Shown here: positions 1,002-47,990 of the stretch, piece after piece | How positions within the stretch are numbered: the stretch's first letter is position 1 | How the letters are laid out: every line of letters begins with the position of its first letter | Assembly: GCA_021786315.1 (NCBI GenBank) | Contig: JAJYNN010000002.1 | Location: forward strand, 398,997-462,996 | Source of the DNA: a bacterium | Lineage (GTDB): Bacteria > Patescibacteriota > Microgenomatia > Daviesbacterales > UBA10151 | Reading direction: 5' to 3' | DNA: 64,000 nt | Program-made: the position numbers and the translations under genes | The notes under the pieces: model-generated | Told to the model about the DNA's origin: nothing | The model's database searches: none | The model's input: the letters and a program-made list of their open reading frames with translations, nothing else

Positions 1002-1070
1002 ATAGGGCTACCTTTTGACTTCGTCAAAACGATCCTGTAATTTCTCCCCGCATTCGCGGTCGAAATTATA
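1002..1070. repeat. Two-hairpin short repeat, full copy A (intergenic)
   Basis: TATAGGGCTACCTT-TTGACTTCGTCAAA-ACGATCCTGTAATTTCTC-CCGCATTCGCGG-TCGAAATTATA. Confidence 0.75.
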
Positions 1071-1082
1071 ACTTAGTCGAGG

Positions 1083-3041
<1,959 letters not shown>

Positions 3042-4002: not shown

Positions 4003-5706
4003 ATGGCACAGCCTGCTCAGTTTGGTATTGAAGATGTCTTATTCAAACAGGGTTTGTTAACCGCAAACCAGCTTTCTTCGATAAAGCTCGAGGCAATCAA
4101 TAGTGGCCAGTCTGCTGAGCAAATTATTGAATCCCATCAGTTAGTGCCTCCGGCTAAGATGGCAGCCGCCCGGTCTCAGCTTTTGGGTGTCCCCTTTATT
4201 AACCTGGAAGGCAAAGCTATTTCCCCTGAGGTTTTAAATTATATTCCTGAAGCCGTAGCTCGCCGTTACCGCTTGGTACCCTTTGACCGTAAAGCCGACA
4301 AGCTTTTTGTAGCTATGGCTGATCCTTTAGATCTCCAGGTTATCCAATTCATTGAGAAAAAATCCGGACTTTTTGTTAAGCCTTACCTGGCGGTTCCGGA
4401 AGATATCTTAAAGGCTGTCTCTGACCAGTACTCCCAGAACTTAACCAGTGAAGTTACCTCTGCCCTGAAGGAAGTAAACTCGATGCAGGCGCCGCACCAG
4501 GAGACTCCGGAAGAAAAGGCCGAGGTCCTTAAAGAGGCGCCGGTTGCCAACATTATCACCCAGCTTTTGGAATATGCTGTTAAGTCCCACGCTTCCGATA
4601 TTCATATCGAGCCTTTGGAGGATAAAACCCGTGTCCGTTACCGGATTGACGGTATTTTGCATGAAAAAGTGATTTTGCCCCGGGGAGTGCATGAGGCGGT
4701 AATTTCCAGGATTAAAATCTTGTCCAACTTAAAGATTGAGGAAAAGAGGTTGCCGCAAGACGGACGTTTTAGCTATACCTCCGGCAAATCTGTGTTTGAC
4801 CTCCGTGTTTCCACTGTCCCTACTATTTACGGTGAAAAGGTAGTGATGAGGTTGCTTCCTAAAAGTACTGTTGCTCCGACTCTGCAGGAGCTGGGACTGC
4901 GGGGTGTGGCTTTGAAAAACCTGGAATTTCAAATTACCCGGCCCCATGGAATCATCTTAATCTGTGGTCCTACAGGTTCCGGTAAAACCACTACCCTCTA
5001 CTCGATCCTGACTAAACTCTCTACCACTAAGGTTAACCTGGTCACTATTGAGGATCCGGTTGAGTACCAGATTCCCGGTGCAAACCAGGTCCAGGCCAAC
5101 CCTCAAATTGGTTTGACTTTTGCCCAAGCCCTCAGGTCTTTCCTGCGGCAAGACCCGAACGTTATCCTGGTGGGAGAGATTCGTGATGCGGAAACTGCCG
5201 ATTTGGCTATTCAGGCAGCCCTCACCGGCCACGAAGTGTTTTCTACCCTGCACACTAATACTGCCTCCGGTGCTCTCCCCAGGCTTTTAGATATGGGGAT
5301 GGAGCCATTCCTTTTAGCTTCCTCTATCAATGCCGTTGTCGGGCAGAGAATTTTAAGAAAGGTTTGCCAGACCTGTAAAGCGCCGTTTACTCCTCCGCCG
5401 GAGGTTGCCGACAATATCCGGAAAGTTTTAGGGAATCTGGTGCCTGCTAATAAACCAATTACTTTGTACAAAGGAGTCGGTTGCGCCAGTTGCGGGCATG
5501 TCGGTTACTCGGGCCGAATTGGAATTTTTGAGGCTCTGATTGTAACCCCTAAAATTATGAAGATGATTTTGGAGCGGACTTCTGCCCAGGAGATAGAAAC
5601 TGAGGCGATATCGGAGGGAATGATTACCTTAAAACAGGATGGGTACTTGAAGGCCTTAGAAGGCGTTACTACTTTAGAGGAGGTACTAAGGGTCGCCGAG
5701 GATTAA
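4003..5706 (+). CDS. pilB: Type IV pilus assembly ATPase PilB (GspE family)
   Basis: 567 aa. T2SE_N-like N-terminus, Walker A GPTGSGKTTTL, and the tetracysteine CQTC...CASCGH motif. Confidence 0.9.
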   Translation: MAQPAQFGIEDVLFKQGLLTANQLSSIKLEAINSGQSAEQIIESHQLVPPAKMAAARSQLLGVPFINLEGKAISPEVLNYIPEAVARRYRLVPFDRKADKLFVAMADPLDLQVIQFIEKKSGLFVKPYLAVPEDILKAVSDQYSQNLTSEVTSALKEVNSMQAPHQETPEEKAEVLKEAPVANIITQLLEYAVKSHASDIHIEPLEDKTRVRYRIDGILHEKVILPRGVHEAVISRIKILSNLKIEEKRLPQDGRFSYTSGKSVFDLRVSTVPTIYGEKVVMRLLPKSTVAPTLQELGLRGVALKNLEFQITRPHGIILICGPTGSGKTTTLYSILTKLSTTKVNLVTIEDPVEYQIPGANQVQANPQIGLTFAQALRSFLRQDPNVILVGEIRDAETADLAIQAALTGHEVFSTLHTNTASGALPRLLDMGMEPFLLASSINAVVGQRILRKVCQTCKAPFTPPPEVADNIRKVLGNLVPANKPITLYKGVGCASCGHVGYSGRIGIFEALIVTPKIMKMILERTSAQEIETEAISEGMITLKQDGYLKALEGVTTLEEVLRVAED

Positions 5707-13476: not shown

Positions 13477-14396
13477 TGTTTCAAAAAGGACAAACAATCA
13501 TTATTTTACTTTTGGTGGTGGTTATCGCTTTGGGTATTGGTTTGACTGTGGTTGGCCGAAGCATTACTGAAATTTCTACCTCCACAAAAACAGAGGAATC
13601 TACCCGAGCCTTTGCGGCAGCAGAAGCCGGGATCGAACGCGCACTTTCAAGGAATTCCGGGATAGGCCAAGGAAGCGCCGGGAATTTGAGTTTGGGAAGC
13701 TCTGATTTGACTAATCAATCCAGTGCCGATGTCAGCTGGAACCCGCTTTTGCCTGACACCAGTTTGGCTTTAGAATACCCGCCATTCGGCAAAGAAAGTT
13801 TCGCCCAGGTTTGGCTGGCAGATCCAATCCACTCAACAAACGGATACCCGAACGCATCTTATAACCAGAATAATTTTGATATTTATTTCGGCAAGATTGA
13901 TGATACCTATTACGCAGCAAATCCTGACCAAAAACCTGCTATTGAGGTTGTGGTTGTTTACCGTGACGGAAATAATTTTAATAGTATCAGCAATTTCTAT
14001 GATTCTTATTCCGGTACGAATCCCAGCAGCAGGAACAACAGTTTTTCCGGATGCGCTGCCTTAAAGCCTGCAAGCATAGTAACTAATCAAAACTCTAATT
14101 CAGGGAGAATTTTTTATTGTCAGGTTCATATCACGGGTTTTCCTTATAACGTTGGAGCAAACCAGTATCCGGTGATGGCGAGGATAAGAGTTTTGTACAG
14201 CAATATTAGCCACCCCGTGGCTCTCCAGCCTACCGGAGGCTCATCCCTGCCACGGCAGGTTGCAATTTTCACCTCGACTGGTGAGTCCGGAGGAGCACAG
14301 AAAACTATACGAACTATCCAGGTTTTCCAGCAAAAATCCGTCATGCCTAACCTTTTTAACTATGCACTATTTTCTGCAGGAGCACTAAACAAATGA
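13476..14396 (+). CDS. PilX-like pilus assembly protein (PilX N-terminal domain)
   Basis: N-terminal TM segment followed by RAFAAAEAGIERAL, typical of PilX_N. 306 aa. Confidence 0.55.
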   Translation: MFQKGQTIIILLLVVVIALGIGLTVVGRSITEISTSTKTEESTRAFAAAEAGIERALSRNSGIGQGSAGNLSLGSSDLTNQSSADVSWNPLLPDTSLALEYPPFGKESFAQVWLADPIHSTNGYPNASYNQNNFDIYFGKIDDTYYAANPDQKPAIEVVVVYRDGNNFNSISNFYDSYSGTNPSSRNNSFSGCAALKPASIVTNQNSNSGRIFYCQVHITGFPYNVGANQYPVMARIRVLYSNISHPVALQPTGGSSLPRQVAIFTSTGESGGAQKTIRTIQVFQQKSVMPNLFNYALFSAGALNK

Positions 14397-14854
14397 CGAC
14401 AAAAAAAGAAAAGGGCTTCACCCTTGTAAGGCTACCTTCGCTTCGCGAACGATCTTGCAAGGGCTTTACCCTTGTGGAAGTGATGTTGGCGGTGGCGGCG
14501 GTTATCTTTTTAGGCTTTTTAGTTATGAGTCTGCCTTCGGCAATCTCTTCAATTAACCGGAGCAGGCACACTTCAATTGCAAAAGACATCGCCAGCCGTC
14601 AAATCGAAAAACTAAGAGAACAGACTTACGCTAATTTAGCCAACGGTACCAGCTCGTTTACCGATTCGGATTTGGATAGTCTGAATCAATCTTCTGCTTC
14701 CTACGAAATTGAAGACTGCCCCTCAAGTGTTTGTACGGACATTGGCGTTTATAAATTAAAACAGGTAAAAGCTTCAGTTTCTTGGAATGAATTAGGTGAT
14801 AATAAAAAAGTGGAGATGACTACACTTGTTGGTGAAGGAGGAATAGGACAATGA
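14393..14854 (+). CDS. Pseudopilin-like protein whose leader carries a repeat insertion that duplicates the KG|FTL site
   Basis: MTTKKEKGFTLVRLPSLRERSCKGFTLVEVMLAVAAVIFLGF. The RLPSLRERSC segment is encoded by hairpin 1 of the two-hairpin repeat. Confidence 0.5.
   Translation: MTTKKEKGFTLVRLPSLRERSCKGFTLVEVMLAVAAVIFLGFLVMSLPSAISSINRSRHTSIAKDIASRQIEKLREQTYANLANGTSSFTDSDLDSLNQSSASYEIEDCPSSVCTDIGVYKLKQVKASVSWNELGDNKKVEMTTLVGEGGIGQ
14428..14458. repeat. Two-hairpin repeat, partial copy E (hairpin 1 only) inside a pseudopilin leader, flanked by a 17-bp imperfect direct repeat
   Basis: AAGGGCTTCACCCTTGT-aAGGCTACCTTCGCTTCGCGAACGATCTTGC-AAGGGCTTTACCCTTGT. Confidence 0.6.
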
Positions 14855-30215: not shown

Positions 30216-30995
30216 ATGGGATTTTCCGGGGTTATTTTAGCAGGCCTATTTTTATCAGAACTCTTTATCTTATTCTTTCTTTCTCGATTTTTAACCAAAT
30301 CACTCTCACGGGTTTTATATGCCGTGACCCGAAGCCGGAAAGTAACGGTCTATCTTCTGGCAATTATCTTTTTGCCGGGAACAATTATTCACGAGCTGGC
30401 CCACTTTTTATCTGCGGAGATGATGTTGGTGCCAACCGGAGATATTGATATTTTCCCGGAAATAGGGCTACCTTCCGACGTGCGTCGGAACGATCCTGTA
30501 ATTTCTCGAGGACTCGAAATTATTGAAGAAAAAAGTATTCGCTTGGGTAGTATCCAAGTTGGGCAAACTGATATGGTCAGAAGGTTTCTTATCGGTGTGG
30601 CACCCGTTGTTGTCGGGCTGGGTTTAATCTTTGGGGTTTTGTGGGTCATGCAGGAGCATCTTTTGGGAAGCTTGTCTTTTTGGCAACAGACGTTGGCTTT
30701 TTATACGGTTTTTGTGATTTCCAACAATATGTTTTCCAGTAAAAAGGACATGGAAGGGGCAGCAGCATTTTTAGTGGCAATATTTGCTGTCTCGGCTTTG
30801 GTTTTGGGAGTACTGTACTTTACCGGAAATCTTGATTTTGGATTTATTTTCCGGAAATTAGAAGCTTCGGAACTTGTAAATTTCTTTCAAAAGGTAGATC
30901 AGTTTTTGGTCGTTCCCTTAGGTTTGGATGTGGCAATTTTAGGATTGGCTACAGTTTTGACAGGGATAAGTCGAAAGGCAAAGAGCCTAATTTAA
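30216..30995 (+). CDS. Polytopic membrane protein with an HExxH motif (putative zinc metalloprotease-like) carrying an in-frame repeat insertion
   Basis: 259 aa. HELAH lies in a TM context. Residues 83-103 (IGLPSDVRRNDPVISRGLEII) are encoded by a full copy of the two-hairpin repeat. Confidence 0.5.
   Translation: MGFSGVILAGLFLSELFILFFLSRFLTKSLSRVLYAVTRSRKVTVYLLAIIFLPGTIIHELAHFLSAEMMLVPTGDIDIFPEIGLPSDVRRNDPVISRGLEIIEEKSIRLGSIQVGQTDMVRRFLIGVAPVVVGLGLIFGVLWVMQEHLLGSLSFWQQTLAFYTVFVISNNMFSSKKDMEGAAAFLVAIFAVSALVLGVLYFTGNLDFGFIFRKLEASELVNFFQKVDQFLVVPLGLDVAILGLATVLTGISRKAKSLI
30462..30524. repeat. Two-hairpin repeat, full copy B, in frame inside CDS 30216..30995
   Basis: ATAGGGCTACCTT-CCGACGTGCGTCGG-AACGATCCTGTAATTTCTC-GAGGACTC-GAAATTATT. 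Inserts 21 codons. Confidence 0.75.
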
Positions 30996-35673: not shown

Positions 35674-35749
35674 AGATTTAATATACTATATTTAAATGTC
35701 CTTGACGCACTTTTAGTTTCTCCCTTACAATATATCGTTGGAAAAAGTT

Positions 35750-35789
35750 TATAGGGCTACCTTCGCTTCGCGAACGATCCTGTATTATA
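35750..35789. repeat. Two-hairpin repeat, short copy D (hairpin 1 plus truncated core) 10 bp upstream of the atpB start
   Basis: TATAGGGCTACCTT-CGCTTCGCG-AACGATCCTGTA-TTATAA. Confidence 0.7.
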
Positions 35790-35799
35790 AAAATGTCAT

Positions 35800-36537
35800 A
35801 TGAATATTGAATTAGCAGCAGAACAAATTGGTCACATCGGTGCTTTGCCGGTTACTAACACCATGCTGATGAGCTGGGTGGTAACGGCAATCTTGAGTAT
35901 TACCGCCATTATCGTTTCCCGGAAAGTTACCCTTGTTCCGGCAGGATTACAAAACTTTTTTGAATTTGTTATTGAATATGCCTACAACATGACTGAAGAA
36001 TTGGCTCACTCCAAAGCCAAGGTATTTTTCCCGTTTATCATGACCTTCTTCCTTTTCATTATCACTTCCAACTGGCTGGGGCTTTTGCCTGGATTCGGAA
36101 CTATTGGTTTTAATGAGATTAAGGATGGCAAGGAAACTTTCATTCCCCTGCTCCGCTCCATTAACGCCGACCTGAATATGACTTTGTCCCTGGCTTTAGT
36201 CTCAGTAATAGTTACCCACTTTTTTGCGGTTAGATACTTAGGAATTAAAGATTATTTAAAGAAATGGTTTGCTTTAAACCCCATTTTTCTATTTGTTGGC
36301 CTTTTAGAGTTGGTGGGAGAAGTTACTAAAGTAGTCTCGCTTTCCTTTCGGCTTTTTGGTAATATATTTGCGGGCGAAGTTGTACTGGCAACAATTGCCG
36401 GTATTTTTGCTTTTGTGGCACCTCTCCCCTTCTATTTCTTGGAAATTATTGTGGGGTTTGTACAGGCAGCAGTCTTTATGATGCTTACCTTAACGTTTAT
36501 GGTGCTTTTAACGGAAAAACATGGTGAGGAGCATTAG
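35800..36537 (+). CDS. atpB: F-type ATP synthase F0 subunit a
   Basis: 245 aa. SLSFRLFGNIFAGEVVL contains the conserved Arg of subunit a. Confidence 0.85.
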   Translation: MNIELAAEQIGHIGALPVTNTMLMSWVVTAILSITAIIVSRKVTLVPAGLQNFFEFVIEYAYNMTEELAHSKAKVFFPFIMTFFLFIITSNWLGLLPGFGTIGFNEIKDGKETFIPLLRSINADLNMTLSLALVSVIVTHFFAVRYLGIKDYLKKWFALNPIFLFVGLLELVGEVTKVVSLSFRLFGNIFAGEVVLATIAGIFAFVAPLPFYFLEIIVGFVQAAVFMMLTLTFMVLLTEKHGEEH

Positions 36538-46028: not shown

Positions 46029-47807
46029 GTGTTGTCATCACTCAGGCGTCGGTTCCAAGTACCAAGTCTTCTGGGCAGGTATTGGCGAATCCTCAAGCCA
46101 TTTCGGGGAGTTTATACAAAGTGTATCTTACTTCTTTTGGCTTACGAAGGTATCCAAATCCTAGGGTCTTACCAGATGAGCATGATGATCAGGCTCTTTG
46201 GAGATAAGGCCAACTACTGGTGGTGGGTGCTCTTTTTTGTCGGGTTGGTAATCTACGATGAAACGTTCATCCGGTTAGACAACCTGCTGGATTGGCACAT
46301 CATCATCAGGCAGAACTATCCCCTATACCGTTATTTGAAGCTGGGGGCCATCAAAAAGTTCCTGCAAATGGACATTGATTGGCACCAGAAACACAATAGC
46401 GGAGCCTTGGTGGGCAAGGTTGCCCAGGGCGTGGAAAAGGTTGAGGACATTATGGGTATGATCTGGATAGAGTTTATACCAACAACTATCCAGGCTGTCT
46501 TTTCCCTAATTCCTCTTCTCTTTATCTCACCGCTCGCAGTGGCGATCTCGGCACTTTCTTTCCTGTTGTTTGTCAGGTTCAGCCTAAAAAACAACAAAGA
46601 AAGAAGACCGTCCAAGGAAAGGCGGTTTGACCTTTACGAGACGGAATGGCATCGCTCGATTGAGATCGTCCAGTCGGTGGAAACCAACTATATGTTTGGC
46701 CAGACTGACAGGTTGATCAATGAGCAGGCAGATCTTCACCAGGAAATCATGGATATAGGCAGGAAGGAGGCACATCGCGGGATATACCACTACAACAGGC
46801 TTGAGCTACGGATTATCCGTTTTGCCCGGGTGGCAATCCTGGGAATCTGGGGGTACCAACTAATCAATGGAGGTATGGATATTCCTACTCTCATCTTTGT
46901 CTACACGCTAACCGAAAGGCTCTTTTCTAGTTTTTGGAGGTTCTCCAGACTCATTGAAAAGACATCGGAATCAGCAGAAGGGGCAAACAGATTGGCCAAT
47001 CTCCTCGAAGAGGAAACAGGCCATGAAGCGGAAGGTGAGGTTACCACGCCCAAAACTCAACCCGTGGGGGTCGAGTTGAAAGGGGTCCGTTTCACTTACA
47101 AAAAGGAATACGACGAGGAGCAAGACGGATTACATGATGTAACTCTGGATATTCCTGCAGGAAGCGTAGTGGCACTGGTTGGCCCATCAGGTGCCGGGAA
47201 GACGACAATTCGGAAAATTGTCACCGGTCTGATGGAAATCCAAGGAGGAGATATTCGTGTTGGAGGTGTAAGTGTTAAGGACTGGGACCCGGAGAAGCTG
47301 TTGGAGCAATTCTCATATGTTCCTCAAGGGGACGACGTGTTCTTATTCAACGGAACCGTCAGGGACAATATTGCCTTTGCTAGGCCCAAAGCTTCTATGG
47401 AGGAAGTTGAAAGGGCGGCGGTATTGGCAGGTATCCATGACTTTATTATGTCCATGGCAGAAGGTTACGAGACCGTCGTTGGTGAACGCGGAAAAAGGCT
47501 ATCAGGAGGACAAAAGCAAAGAGTAGCACTGGCACGGGCAATCCTAGCTGATCGGCCAGTCCTTATCTTGGACGAAGCCACAAGTGCAGTGGATGCTATT
47601 ACTGAGGAGGAAATCCAACAAAAAATGGCGGAAATTCTCCATGGAAAAACCTCCATCATTATTGCCCATAGACTTTCCACTGTTTGGGACATTGCGAATA
47701 AAATCGTTGTTCTGGAACGTGGTCGAAAAGTCGAAGAGGGCACGCATGCCGAATTGATGGCGTTAAATGGTCTCTACAGCAAAATGGCGCTGTTGCAGAC
47801 CAAATAG
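46029..47807 (+). CDS. ABC exporter, fused permease and ATP-binding protein
   Basis: 592 aa. GTG start after AAAGGAGG. Walker A GPSGAGKTT, signature LSGGQKQRVALARA, Walker B LILDEATSAVD. The stop codon is supplied by the first bases of a repeat copy. Confidence 0.85.
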   Translation: MLSSLRRRFQVPSLLGRYWRILKPFRGVYTKCILLLLAYEGIQILGSYQMSMMIRLFGDKANYWWWVLFFVGLVIYDETFIRLDNLLDWHIIIRQNYPLYRYLKLGAIKKFLQMDIDWHQKHNSGALVGKVAQGVEKVEDIMGMIWIEFIPTTIQAVFSLIPLLFISPLAVAISALSFLLFVRFSLKNNKERRPSKERRFDLYETEWHRSIEIVQSVETNYMFGQTDRLINEQADLHQEIMDIGRKEAHRGIYHYNRLELRIIRFARVAILGIWGYQLINGGMDIPTLIFVYTLTERLFSSFWRFSRLIEKTSESAEGANRLANLLEEETGHEAEGEVTTPKTQPVGVELKGVRFTYKKEYDEEQDGLHDVTLDIPAGSVVALVGPSGAGKTTIRKIVTGLMEIQGGDIRVGGVSVKDWDPEKLLEQFSYVPQGDDVFLFNGTVRDNIAFARPKASMEEVERAAVLAGIHDFIMSMAEGYETVVGERGKRLSGGQKQRVALARAILADRPVLILDEATSAVDAITEEEIQQKMAEILHGKTSIIIAHRLSTVWDIANKIVVLERGRKVEEGTHAELMALNGLYSKMALLQTK

Positions 47808-47872
47808 GGCTACCTTCGGCTTCGCCGAACGATCCTGTAATTTCTCTCCGCCAAAAGCGGATCGAAATTATG
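47805..47872. repeat. Two-hairpin repeat, full copy C; its first bases form the stop codon of the ABC exporter
   Basis: ATAGGGCTACCTT-CGGCTTCGCCG-AACGATCCTGTAATTTCTC-TCCGCCAAAAGCGGA-TCGAAATTATG. Confidence 0.75.
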
Positions 47873-47990
47873 ACGCATCTTTTAGGCAAGTAAAGCACCA
47901 GGTTGTTCGAGTAATCGAACGTAAGTCCTGGTGCTTTTTGCCATCTTGACTTTGGGTTTTTTACGGGTGTATAAATAGAACACATCTAGT

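Follow-up and report, generated by a model that had tools for sequence, protein, structure and literature searches.

Small structured repeats at stop-to-start junctions of Microgenomates genomes, a candidate family of mobile RNA cassettes

We describe a family of short hairpin repeats, ~31-66 nt long, that recurs in a 64-kb stretch of DNA from a Daviesbacterales bacterium (contig JAJYNN010000002.1, positions 398,997 to 462,996; hereafter the window) and in related genomes of the Microgenomates, which belong to the candidate phyla radiation (CPR) of bacteria. We propose, in a judgement that is evenly balanced, that the copies represent a new family of miniature, non-autonomous mobile cassettes, structured as RNA, that span the intercistronic space from stop to start and act as folded RNA within mRNAs. 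The distinctive traits of the family are its fit between stop and start codons, its RNA-type conservation, and its fast turnover between relatives together with the long retention of some copies. By its behavior, we would classify it with the small structured repeats of the repetitive extragenic palindrome/bacterial interspersed mosaic element (REP/BIME), enterobacterial repetitive intergenic consensus (ERIC) or Rickettsia palindromic element (RPE) kind; we infer both its route of spread and its molecular role, be it coupling, modulation, stabilization or factor binding.

The genomes of CPR bacteria are tiny and densely packed, and little repetitive or regulatory RNA is believed to be present in them. 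If the proposal holds, a structured cassette of 31-66 nt invades the most conserved operons of such genomes, apparently by way of its own stop-codon and start-codon edges, and its domesticated copies would offer a natural system for how mobile RNA structures become devices of translational control and coupling. The anatomy of its junctions would further point to spread that perhaps proceeds without a transposase, which is of general interest for genome evolution. On the practical side, the element breaks assemblies, adds peptide segments to annotated proteins, can create promoters, and could serve as a clade marker.

Copies in the window and their common fold

A covariance model built from 32 copies detects exactly five copies in the window, all on the + strand (47.9-62.6 bits; E 5e-13 to 7e-18), and the next-best match there scores 10.9 bits (E 0.9). 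The original prediction had marked the same five, as full copies at ~1002-1070, ~30462-30524 and ~47805-47872 and as short ones at ~35750-35789 and ~14428-14458, and the model confirms each of them. It had also listed a related fragment at ~11080, within a pilin leader; since the model finds five copies and its next match reaches 10.9 bits, this undetected fragment is not a member and is best treated as chance. The five sites share a module made of TARGGCTACCTT, a palindrome of free sequence and AACGATCYTG(TA), and the 12-mers AACGATCCTGTA and TAGGGCTACCTT have four exact occurrences each in the window. In the three full copies (c1, 1003-1069, 62.6 bits; c2, 30463-30523, 60.8 bits; c3, 47805-47871, 55.7 bits), a second unit follows the core and consists of AATTTCTC, a variable interior and TCGAAATTAT. 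In c1, for example, the core hairpin module spans 1003-1039 and the second hairpin, closed by UAAUUUC/GAAAUUA, spans 1038-1069. The two short forms are c4 (35752-35786, 54.4 bits) and c5 (14427-14459, 47.9 bits), the latter comprising the hairpin-1 module only, in the variant UAAGG...CUUGCA.

The core reads UARGG-CUACC-UU(variable hairpin)AA-CGAUCYUG(UA). In the fold, UARGG pairs with YCUGUA to make an outer helix (P1). Next comes an asymmetric internal loop, in which CUA on the 5' strand faces A on the 3' strand, along with a C-G pair and a C.C position, and then a hairpin (P2) that is free in both sequence and length. Full copies add an adjacent second hairpin with a variable interior, closed by AAUUUC/GAAAUU (UAAUUU.../...AAAUUA); the 3' strand of this second helix abuts or includes the start codon, and its loop often contains a GGA-type ribosome-binding site. 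Several structural details first read from the letters are revised by this fold. The flanks, taken to be invariant single strands, are paired and form P1, with two invariant G.U wobbles and a covarying R-Y pair. The presumed TTCG tetraloops of the first hairpin are mostly C-UUC-G triloops, and the variant GAG-GA-CTC assigned to the second hairpin cannot form because its loop would be 2 nt.

Support for the fold comes from a seed alignment of 32 copies and an extended set of 48 distinct copies from ~30 Microgenomates loci. In the seed, 92.4% of cells are paired, and shifting the partners by 1-3 columns lowers this to 40-47%; covariation scores 0.379 versus 0.05-0.12, and none of 500 shuffles reached the observed covariation. 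In the extended set, four P2 pairs occur in all four Watson-Crick types, and the P1 pair R7-Y44 covaries (G-C in 29 copies, A-U in 18). The idea that stem changes are compensatory and that selection acts on the fold is thereby sustained: many further copies exist in related genomes, the changes stay compensatory with all copies pooled, and the pattern extends to the outer helix. The wobbles of P1 are retained in 47 of 48 (G9.U42) and 43 of 48 copies (U5.G46), and the CUA/A loop and the C13-G40 pair show zero variation. The C.C position is swapped on both sides to U-A in five copies of one subfamily (GGCUACU...AGAUC). On the opposite strand, both invariant wobbles would become A.C mismatches, which points to the + strand as the one that folds. 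The stems alone do not tell RNA from single-stranded DNA, as those of P2 are nearly pure Watson-Crick (239 Watson-Crick, 4 G.T and 6 A.C pairs).

Two unusual arrangements were observed among the copies. At locus L024 (262-339), two identical short forms make up a direct tandem with a spacing of 41 nt, and an extended outer helix (GGGAAUAAGG/CUUGAUCCC) closes each of them. At L145 (4637-4660), a copy is without its entire variable hairpin (UAAGGCUAC/GAUCUUG), as if this had been deleted between flanking short repeats.

Placement between stop and start codons

Most copies are located 18-90 nt upstream of a start codon and in the same orientation, and the previous gene often ends a few bases before them. 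The downstream genes are rplC, rplE, rplK, rpmC, rpsQ, rpsK, tsf, frr, lepA, adk, map, rpoA and atpB. Four loci (L145-L148) were fetched through adenylate-kinase (Adk) homologues and were thus chosen independently of the element. One of them, L145, harbors 13 copies in 16 kb of its S10/spc/alpha operon; all 13 are sense and intercistronic, as are five of five in L121. Adk identity is 92% between L121 and L145 and 73% for L146. The ribosomal-protein operons of L146, L147 and L148 contain zero copies, and most of their corresponding junctions are tight or overlapping. These three loci rule out the general claim that the element is a conserved regulatory feature of ribosomal-protein operons.

Filled and empty sites can be compared directly between L121 and L145, which differ at the L14-L24, S11-S4, S17-L14, L6-L18 and L13-S9 junctions. 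At S11-S4, L121 is empty (GAGTTTAACATG) and L145 is filled (GAGTTTAA/GGCTACC...AAATAT/ATG, with slashes at the boundaries). At L14-L24, L121 again is empty (GGTAA/TAAAAAAGGAG...) and L145 is filled (GGTAG/GGCTACC...). At L6-L18, the filled site is that of L121 (AAATA/GGGCTAC...CATAAAG/ATG), and L145 is empty, with the overlap AAATAATG. Such pairs show the unit fitted precisely into the space from stop to start, with a UAR that overlaps the T, TA or TAA of the target and a 3' end that touches the downstream ATG. The UAR is itself the stop codon of the upstream gene in 5-6 of 50 copies, including c3, where UAG at 47805-47807 ends an ABC-transporter open reading frame (ORF; 46029-47807) and the last bases merge into an ATG (47870-47872) that opens a 7-codon mini-ORF. 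In the window, c4 likewise precedes a gene, within the atpB 5' untranslated region (UTR; ATG at 35800) and 3' of a TTGACG-18-TACAAT promoter at 35702-35731. Orientation is uniform within L145 and L121 and not across the family, as ~11 copies are antisense to local genes, including L072, the tRNA-linked copies discussed below and c1, which lies between two genes of the - strand, gyrB (1083-3041) and an ORF at 321-992.

From this placement, we propose that a hairpin at the stop codon and a helix around the next start site would link upstream termination to downstream initiation. The outcome would be translational coupling or modulation, possibly with mRNA stabilization or processing as well, and a clade-specific factor would likely make its contact at the invariant loop. 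Of the copies, many probably ride along as neutral passengers, and some would have been domesticated.

Gain, loss and the route of insertion

The clearest insertions are within genes. Copy c2 is an in-frame insertion of 60 nt (IGLPSDVRRNDPVISRGLEI) in an ORF for an HExxH membrane protein (30216-30995). The protein has 259 aa versus 220-234 aa in its homologues (named Daviesbacteria/Patescibacteria), and the 20 added residues form a clean insertion that is missing from 11 aligned homologues. The reconstructed empty site is CCCGAAAT/TGAAG, and the unit of 60 nt runs from AGGGC to GAAATTAT, with a boundary that is ambiguous by 2 nt. Similarly, in L020 the unit adds 19 residues to a Mn/Fe superoxide dismutase, between GKLE and INTPNQD, and the stretches of PDB 2rcv to which the two halves of the enzyme align are contiguous. 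In two relatives (loci L137-L141), the syntenic regions were compared over the gene order of DUF5663, the c2 host protein, a tRNA synthetase, an ABC transporter and the atp operon; they contain no copy, which indicates that c2 and c4 were gained in the lineage of the window. Judged from these comparisons, the element is an inserted unit that is gained and lost. The mobility suspected at the outset is therefore supported on four counts: the homologues that lack c2, the superoxide dismutase copy, the empty syntenic loci, and the filled and empty junctions of close relatives.

Coding sequences contain c2, c5 and the copies of L020 and L112. The length of each in-frame copy is a multiple of 3 nt and none contains a stop codon, so they would be read through, and a spliced mini-intron or an archaeal-type bulge-helix-bulge is ruled out on the same grounds. 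By their reading frames, c2 and c5 are translated inserts. The latter is in frame within the leader of a type IV pilin-like ORF (14393-14854) and is flanked by a 17-nt duplication on the + strand (direct-repeat score 14 versus a null maximum of 9). The first repeat (AAGGGCTTCACCCTTGT; 14411-14427), 5' of c5, duplicates the segment that codes for pilin KGFTLV, and the second (AAGGGCTTTACCCTTGT; 14459-14475) is the one with the genuine N-methylation motif, KGFTLVE (N_methyl, residues 20-35). Since the real prepilin motif is in the second duplicate, the insert falls in the cleaved pilin leader.

Across the family, a T is found directly 5' of nearly all copies and the reconstructed targets loosely fit ANT/YGAA, though the boundary slides and many targets have long duplications; the T-loop DNA of tRNA matches this pattern. 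On the left, the overlap with the target is T, TA or TAA; on the right, the ends vary and may include sequence brought along from the previous site. About one third of the copies are flanked by target duplications of 11-52 nt, and c2 and the superoxide dismutase copy have a boundary ambiguity of 0-2 nt. Target-site duplications, which the original prediction had named as a sign of mobility, are thus present in a portion of the family and have no fixed length.

Nine of the antisense copies are located 10-110 nt past the 3' end of a tRNA gene and are convergent with it. The tRNA-linked copies are preceded by a duplicate of the tRNA 3' end (17-52 nt) that stops in the T-loop, and a short copy of the remaining T-arm follows them. 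The duplicates include the genomic trailer and have no CCA, which indicates that they were copied from DNA and rules out tRNA-primed reverse transcription from a 5' flank resembling a primer-binding site. T-loop sequence was carried over in L012, L040 and L120. Taken together, the sliding left junctions, variable right ends, carried-over T-loop sequence and duplications of arbitrary length favor template switching, and we infer that the element spread by copy-choice or microhomology-mediated template switching at a strong hairpin rather than by a classical transposase. No transposase is among the 25 of 61 Pfam families listed for the 68 window ORFs, nor next to copies in the gene tables of the element-bearing loci examined, and no REP-associated tyrosine transposase (RAYT) is found among the listed families of the window or in the gene tables of the fetched loci.

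A hairpin-specific enzyme of single-stranded DNA is a candidate for another route and a serious rival to template switching. Extended to the whole family, this alternative holds that the copies are a selfish single-stranded-DNA element, either a derivative of IS200/IS605 similar to palindrome-associated transposable elements (PATEs) or a REP-like repeat served by a RAYT/HUH enzyme. The hairpins and G.T mismatches would then be recognized by the enzyme on one strand, the lagging-strand template would set the orientation of the copies, and effects at the RNA level, if any, would be a by-product. Much of the anatomy fits: ends are precise, clean insertions have neither terminal inverted repeats nor a regular target duplication, hairpins at both ends form two adjacent helices that bring the ends together, stems are nearly perfect Watson-Crick, and orientation is uniform on the G-rich strand of the window. 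The conserved 5' T and the loose ANT/YGAA target, tRNA T-loop DNA included, might also suit such an element, and the reverse strand of the commonest loop reads C-GAA-G, a very stable DNA mini-hairpin motif. Beyond the transposase missing from the listed window families and the loci examined, however, stem sequences vary among copies of one genome, unlike the ends of insertion sequences or REP families, and the left junctions slide and the right ends vary in a manner unlike cleavage sites defined by an enzyme. Orthologous copies and their flanks are moreover conserved far above neutral expectation, with compensatory changes that reach into the coding region. We regard a purely selfish element as possible, though clearly less probable than folded RNA cassettes.

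Constraint on resident copies

The segment directly 3' of the core pairs with the start-codon region, far above shuffled versions, in 10 of 20 gene-proximal copies. For lepA, its partner is codons 6-10, which it joins in a helix of 12 bp; where L043 and L116 differ synonymously (UUU/UUC), the opposite strand of the helix shows the matching A/G change. In both lepA and rplC, the first 26-33 nt of the gene, from its ATG, are duplicated 5' of the element. The duplicate gives rise to an upstream ORF, which passes through the element in the frame (I)GLPS...NDPV and terminates on the main ATG or beside it, and this frame is kept despite indels (leader lengths of 80 versus 83 nt and 86 versus 86 nt). 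Orthologous rplC and lepA leaders are 80-84% identical. By comparison, identity is at the random level both in the third positions of identical codons (37-45%) and in the upstream spacer (44-47%). The contrast with the saturated third positions and with the spacers indicates that the rplC and lepA copies, along with their locus-specific flanks, are under purifying selection; on these alignments, selection for mobility cannot explain the conservation of the leaders.

The same leaders suggest a different emphasis, in which the element is primarily a cis-regulatory operator or aptamer whose invariant loop binds a clade-specific protein or a small ligand. It would function as a riboswitch-like translational switch for translation and core-metabolism genes, with stabilization of P1 deciding whether the adjacent strand pairs with the 5' flank or the start-codon region, and mobility would be secondary. 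The loop is indeed invariant and bounded by G.U pairs as the stems vary freely, copies stand directly upstream of ribosomal-protein and translation-factor start codons, and the strand after P1 pairs with the start region. In lepA, rplC, L111 and rpoA, the 5' flank duplicates the start region and offers this strand an alternative pairing partner. Whole leaders are under purifying selection. A dedicated switch is nevertheless hard to reconcile with copies in coding sequence, a 3' UTR, antisense orientation and positions beside tRNA genes, or with 13 copies in one operon and zero in relatives at 73% Adk identity. No Rfam class has such an architecture, and neither a ligand nor a protein can be named. 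We therefore consider the operator or aptamer reading rather unlikely.

A further reading, in which the invariant nucleotides are an rRNA-complementary sensor rather than a protein site, strikes us as far-fetched. It draws on UA.GGCUACCUU (5') and ACGA (3' of the variable hairpin), which together would be complementary to 16S rRNA 1495-1498/1502-1513, a universally conserved segment that is the reverse complement of the 1492R primer site; GAUCCUG presumably equals 16S positions 15-21. Free or immature 16S rRNA, by pairing with these nucleotides, would open P1 and free the strand around the next start codon. If this were true, a mobile cassette would tie the translation of ribosomal-protein and translation-factor cistrons to rRNA supply.

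Intercistronic position also raises the question of RNA processing. Under that explanation, polycistronic transcripts would be cut at their junctions, either by RNase III or a different endonuclease that recognizes the element or by the element itself as a small self-cleaving ribozyme; one product would keep a protective hairpin, and the other would have its 5' end close to the start. Its discrete boundaries and its hairpin with an asymmetric internal loop, an arrangement shared with the RNase III sites of phage T7, are compatible with such a signal, and the genome has many leaderless-type starts and encodes RNase III. No Rfam ribozyme family matches, however, and inspection found the consensus features of hammerhead (CUGANGA/GAAA), hepatitis delta virus-like (nested) and kink-turn structures unmet, the last having GA on one strand but CC where the other strand needs GA. 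In-frame copies of multiples of three without stops would be translated and not excised, and the 3' boundary of the unit is inside the AUG, not before it. A processing signal is accordingly very unlikely in our estimation.

Several observations weigh against the proposal of folded RNA cassettes itself. The near-perfect Watson-Crick stems could also reflect upkeep at the DNA level, and either correction of quasipalindromes by template switching or recognition by a single-strand DNA enzyme could mimic compensation. Transcription, folding and effect on translation are deduced from sequence, and the template-switch route is a reconstruction from junction sequences. A mobilizing enzyme may be encoded elsewhere in the genome, the Pfam list covering 25 of 61 families. 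The alternative pairing between the 5' flank and its anti-sequence is significant in only 4-6 of 20 cases. The five window copies are all on the G-rich strand (net positive GC skew), and ribosomal-protein operons are normally co-oriented with replication, so the sense bias could reflect replication direction. Finally, the ~11 antisense copies and the relatives without any copy indicate that the element is not an essential regulatory feature.

Comparison with known repeats

[quoted passage not shown] It is both mobile and structured, and similar to a classical MITE it is small, non-coding, multi-copy and polymorphic for presence and absence. It departs from that class in two respects: its ends, (T)AGGGCTACC... 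and ...GAAATTAT, are not reverse complements and thus provide no terminal inverted repeats, and there is no target-site duplication of fixed length (0-2 nt or 11-52 nt, with a sliding T/TA/TAA).

REP/BIME sequences of Enterobacteria and Pseudomonas are mobilized by RAYT transposases, and a REP located near a stop codon can alter both translation and the stability of the mRNA. Like these, the element features short imperfect palindromes within operons, between cistrons or after stop codons, keeps its pairing as the sequence drifts, and forms mosaics with other small motifs (the M2 and M3 modules of L145 and L121, described below). Unlike REPs, it has no GTAG/CGTC tag at the 5' end of the palindrome; CTAC is 5' of the hairpin and GTAG 3' on the opposite strand, which is the wrong side. 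Its conserved part is an asymmetric internal loop and an outer helix with G.U wobbles, it is not strictly extragenic, given the four copies in coding sequence, and it begins at or as a stop and ends at a start codon. The host clade also differs, being CPR, and RAYT is missing from the families and loci listed above. Integron attC boxes and the REP GTAG tag were among the features that did not fit on inspection.

ERIC sequences, also called intergenic repeat units (IRU), and Correia elements (Neisseria miniature insertion sequences, NEMIS) are non-autonomous, co-transcribed with flanking genes, orientation-dependent in their effects and polymorphic among strains, traits that the element would share; they can also create promoters, as predicted for the reverse strand of c1. 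They measure 100-170 bp, however, and have terminal inverted repeats and, for Correia, a TA duplication, whereas the element is 31-66 nt with neither inverted termini nor a fixed duplication. RPEs are in-frame, translated hairpin repeats, as are c2, c5 and the superoxide dismutase copy, but they are ~100-150 bp, specific to Rickettsia, not specialized for stop-to-start junctions, and without Rfam or sequence relation to the element. Shared with the PATEs derived from IS200/IS605 are the lack of inverted termini, the lack of duplication in clean insertions, the hairpins near both ends and strand specificity; stem sequence is not conserved here, the left junction slides by 1-3 nt, duplications of 11-52 nt are frequent, and no cognate TnpA was found in the loci examined. 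Lastly, ribosomal-protein leaders and riboswitch platforms similarly present a conserved small fold upstream of translation genes, an adjoining strand that pairs with the ribosome-binding site or start region, compensatory changes and purifying selection. In contrast to them, one motif here serves many unrelated operons in high copy, is mobile, is also located in coding, 3' UTR and antisense positions, and is absent from close relatives.

Distribution

When one genome per species was scanned with the loose pattern GGCTACCTT-N-AACGATCYTG, 106 loci were returned, of which ~13 were real and the rest chance matches. The real copies were from Woesebacteria, Daviesbacteria, the 'Microgenomates group' and several mislabeled metagenome-assembled genomes. 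A stricter scan of metagenomes yielded 15 loci, all 15 real and one with five copies, and viral contigs gave chance matches only, in a phage gene. As far as sampled, the family appears confined to Microgenomates. The Rfam search suggested at the outset returned zero matches at gathering thresholds for the window and 13 loci, zero matches at E <= 10 on c3, and chance-level matches only in L121; full-text searches of the literature likewise turned up no description of the element. One unrelated structured RNA was observed ~400 nt from an element copy, at L001 7373-7470: a DUF3800-V RNA (Rfam RF02964, 64 bits) upstream of a restriction-enzyme helicase gene.

Promoters and neighboring features

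The reverse complement of c1, with 4 nt of flank, contains a predicted sigma-70-like promoter on the - strand (TTGACG-17-TATAAT; 999-1027; 11 of 12 consensus matches). The sequence upstream of the ORF at 321-992 is caaaaggtagcccTATAATatccgcATG, and the A of its ATG is seven bases past TATAAT. The predicted transcription start is at this A, in leaderless fashion, and the reverse strand of c1 is probably an exapted leaderless promoter for this gene. A general promoter role was rejected, as c1 is the only copy with a consensus promoter. Throughout the window, many ORFs have a TATAAT-like hexamer that ends 6-8 nt before the start codon (e.g., 3769, 24803, 43912, 42751 and 59781), which suggests that leaderless mRNAs are widespread in this genome. 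The lepA leaders of L043 and L116 likewise read TACAAT-N7-ATG, and the upstream ATG, which follows TACAAT by 7 nt, is therefore a leaderless-type start.

Copy c3 resides in the 3' UTR of the ABC-transporter gene, ahead of a hairpin and T-run that were spotted by eye. This long hairpin (GCACCAGG...CCTGGTGC, then TTTTT) spans 47892-47945 and was not listed by the automatic scan because of its long loop. A TTGACT-17-TATAAA box stands nearby, ahead of the DUF5680 gene, and with the hairpin it resembles a terminator-promoter pair.

Other small repeats occupy the same kind of junction. A second family, M2, with the pattern (A)AGC-NN-AGCTTG...GCTT(C/T)GC, shares intercistronic gaps with the element at L145 808-900, 4605-4706 and 9882-10000, L110 520-560, L107 1270-1312 and L121 13896-13947; in L121, it is located within the loop of the element's own hairpin, a nested insertion. 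A third module, M3, consists of a hairpin and then ATGAC(A/G) shortly before the ATG (e.g., GATCCTGAAATAAATTCAGGATGACGG), and is present in L121 and L145 at the L24-L5, L18-S5, IF1-L36 and L13-S9 junctions. L146, which is without the element, contains another AT-rich palindromic repeat (AATTTTCAATTTTCAA ... TTTGGCGAAGCCAAA ... TTGAAAATTGAAAATT) at its SecY-Adk and S11-S4 junctions (1882-2019 and 5298-5418). It may be that these genomes generally tend to fill junctions with hairpin repeats, each lineage with its own kind.

The window further encodes gyrB, the atp operon, a type IV pilus cluster with eight N-methyl proteins, and DUF5663/DUF5680 proteins. In an independent assembly of the same organism, a contig ends inside c1. 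The 10 kb to the left of the window contain no further copies and feature a tyrosine recombinase and an Avd protein of the diversity-generating retroelement (DGR) type. There, ~5 kb from the window (L143 5168-6490), the DGR-type accessory gene (bAvd/23S_rRNA_IVP) adjoins the tyrosine recombinase, followed by cohesin/dockerin-domain proteins, and a diversity-generating retroelement may lie nearby.

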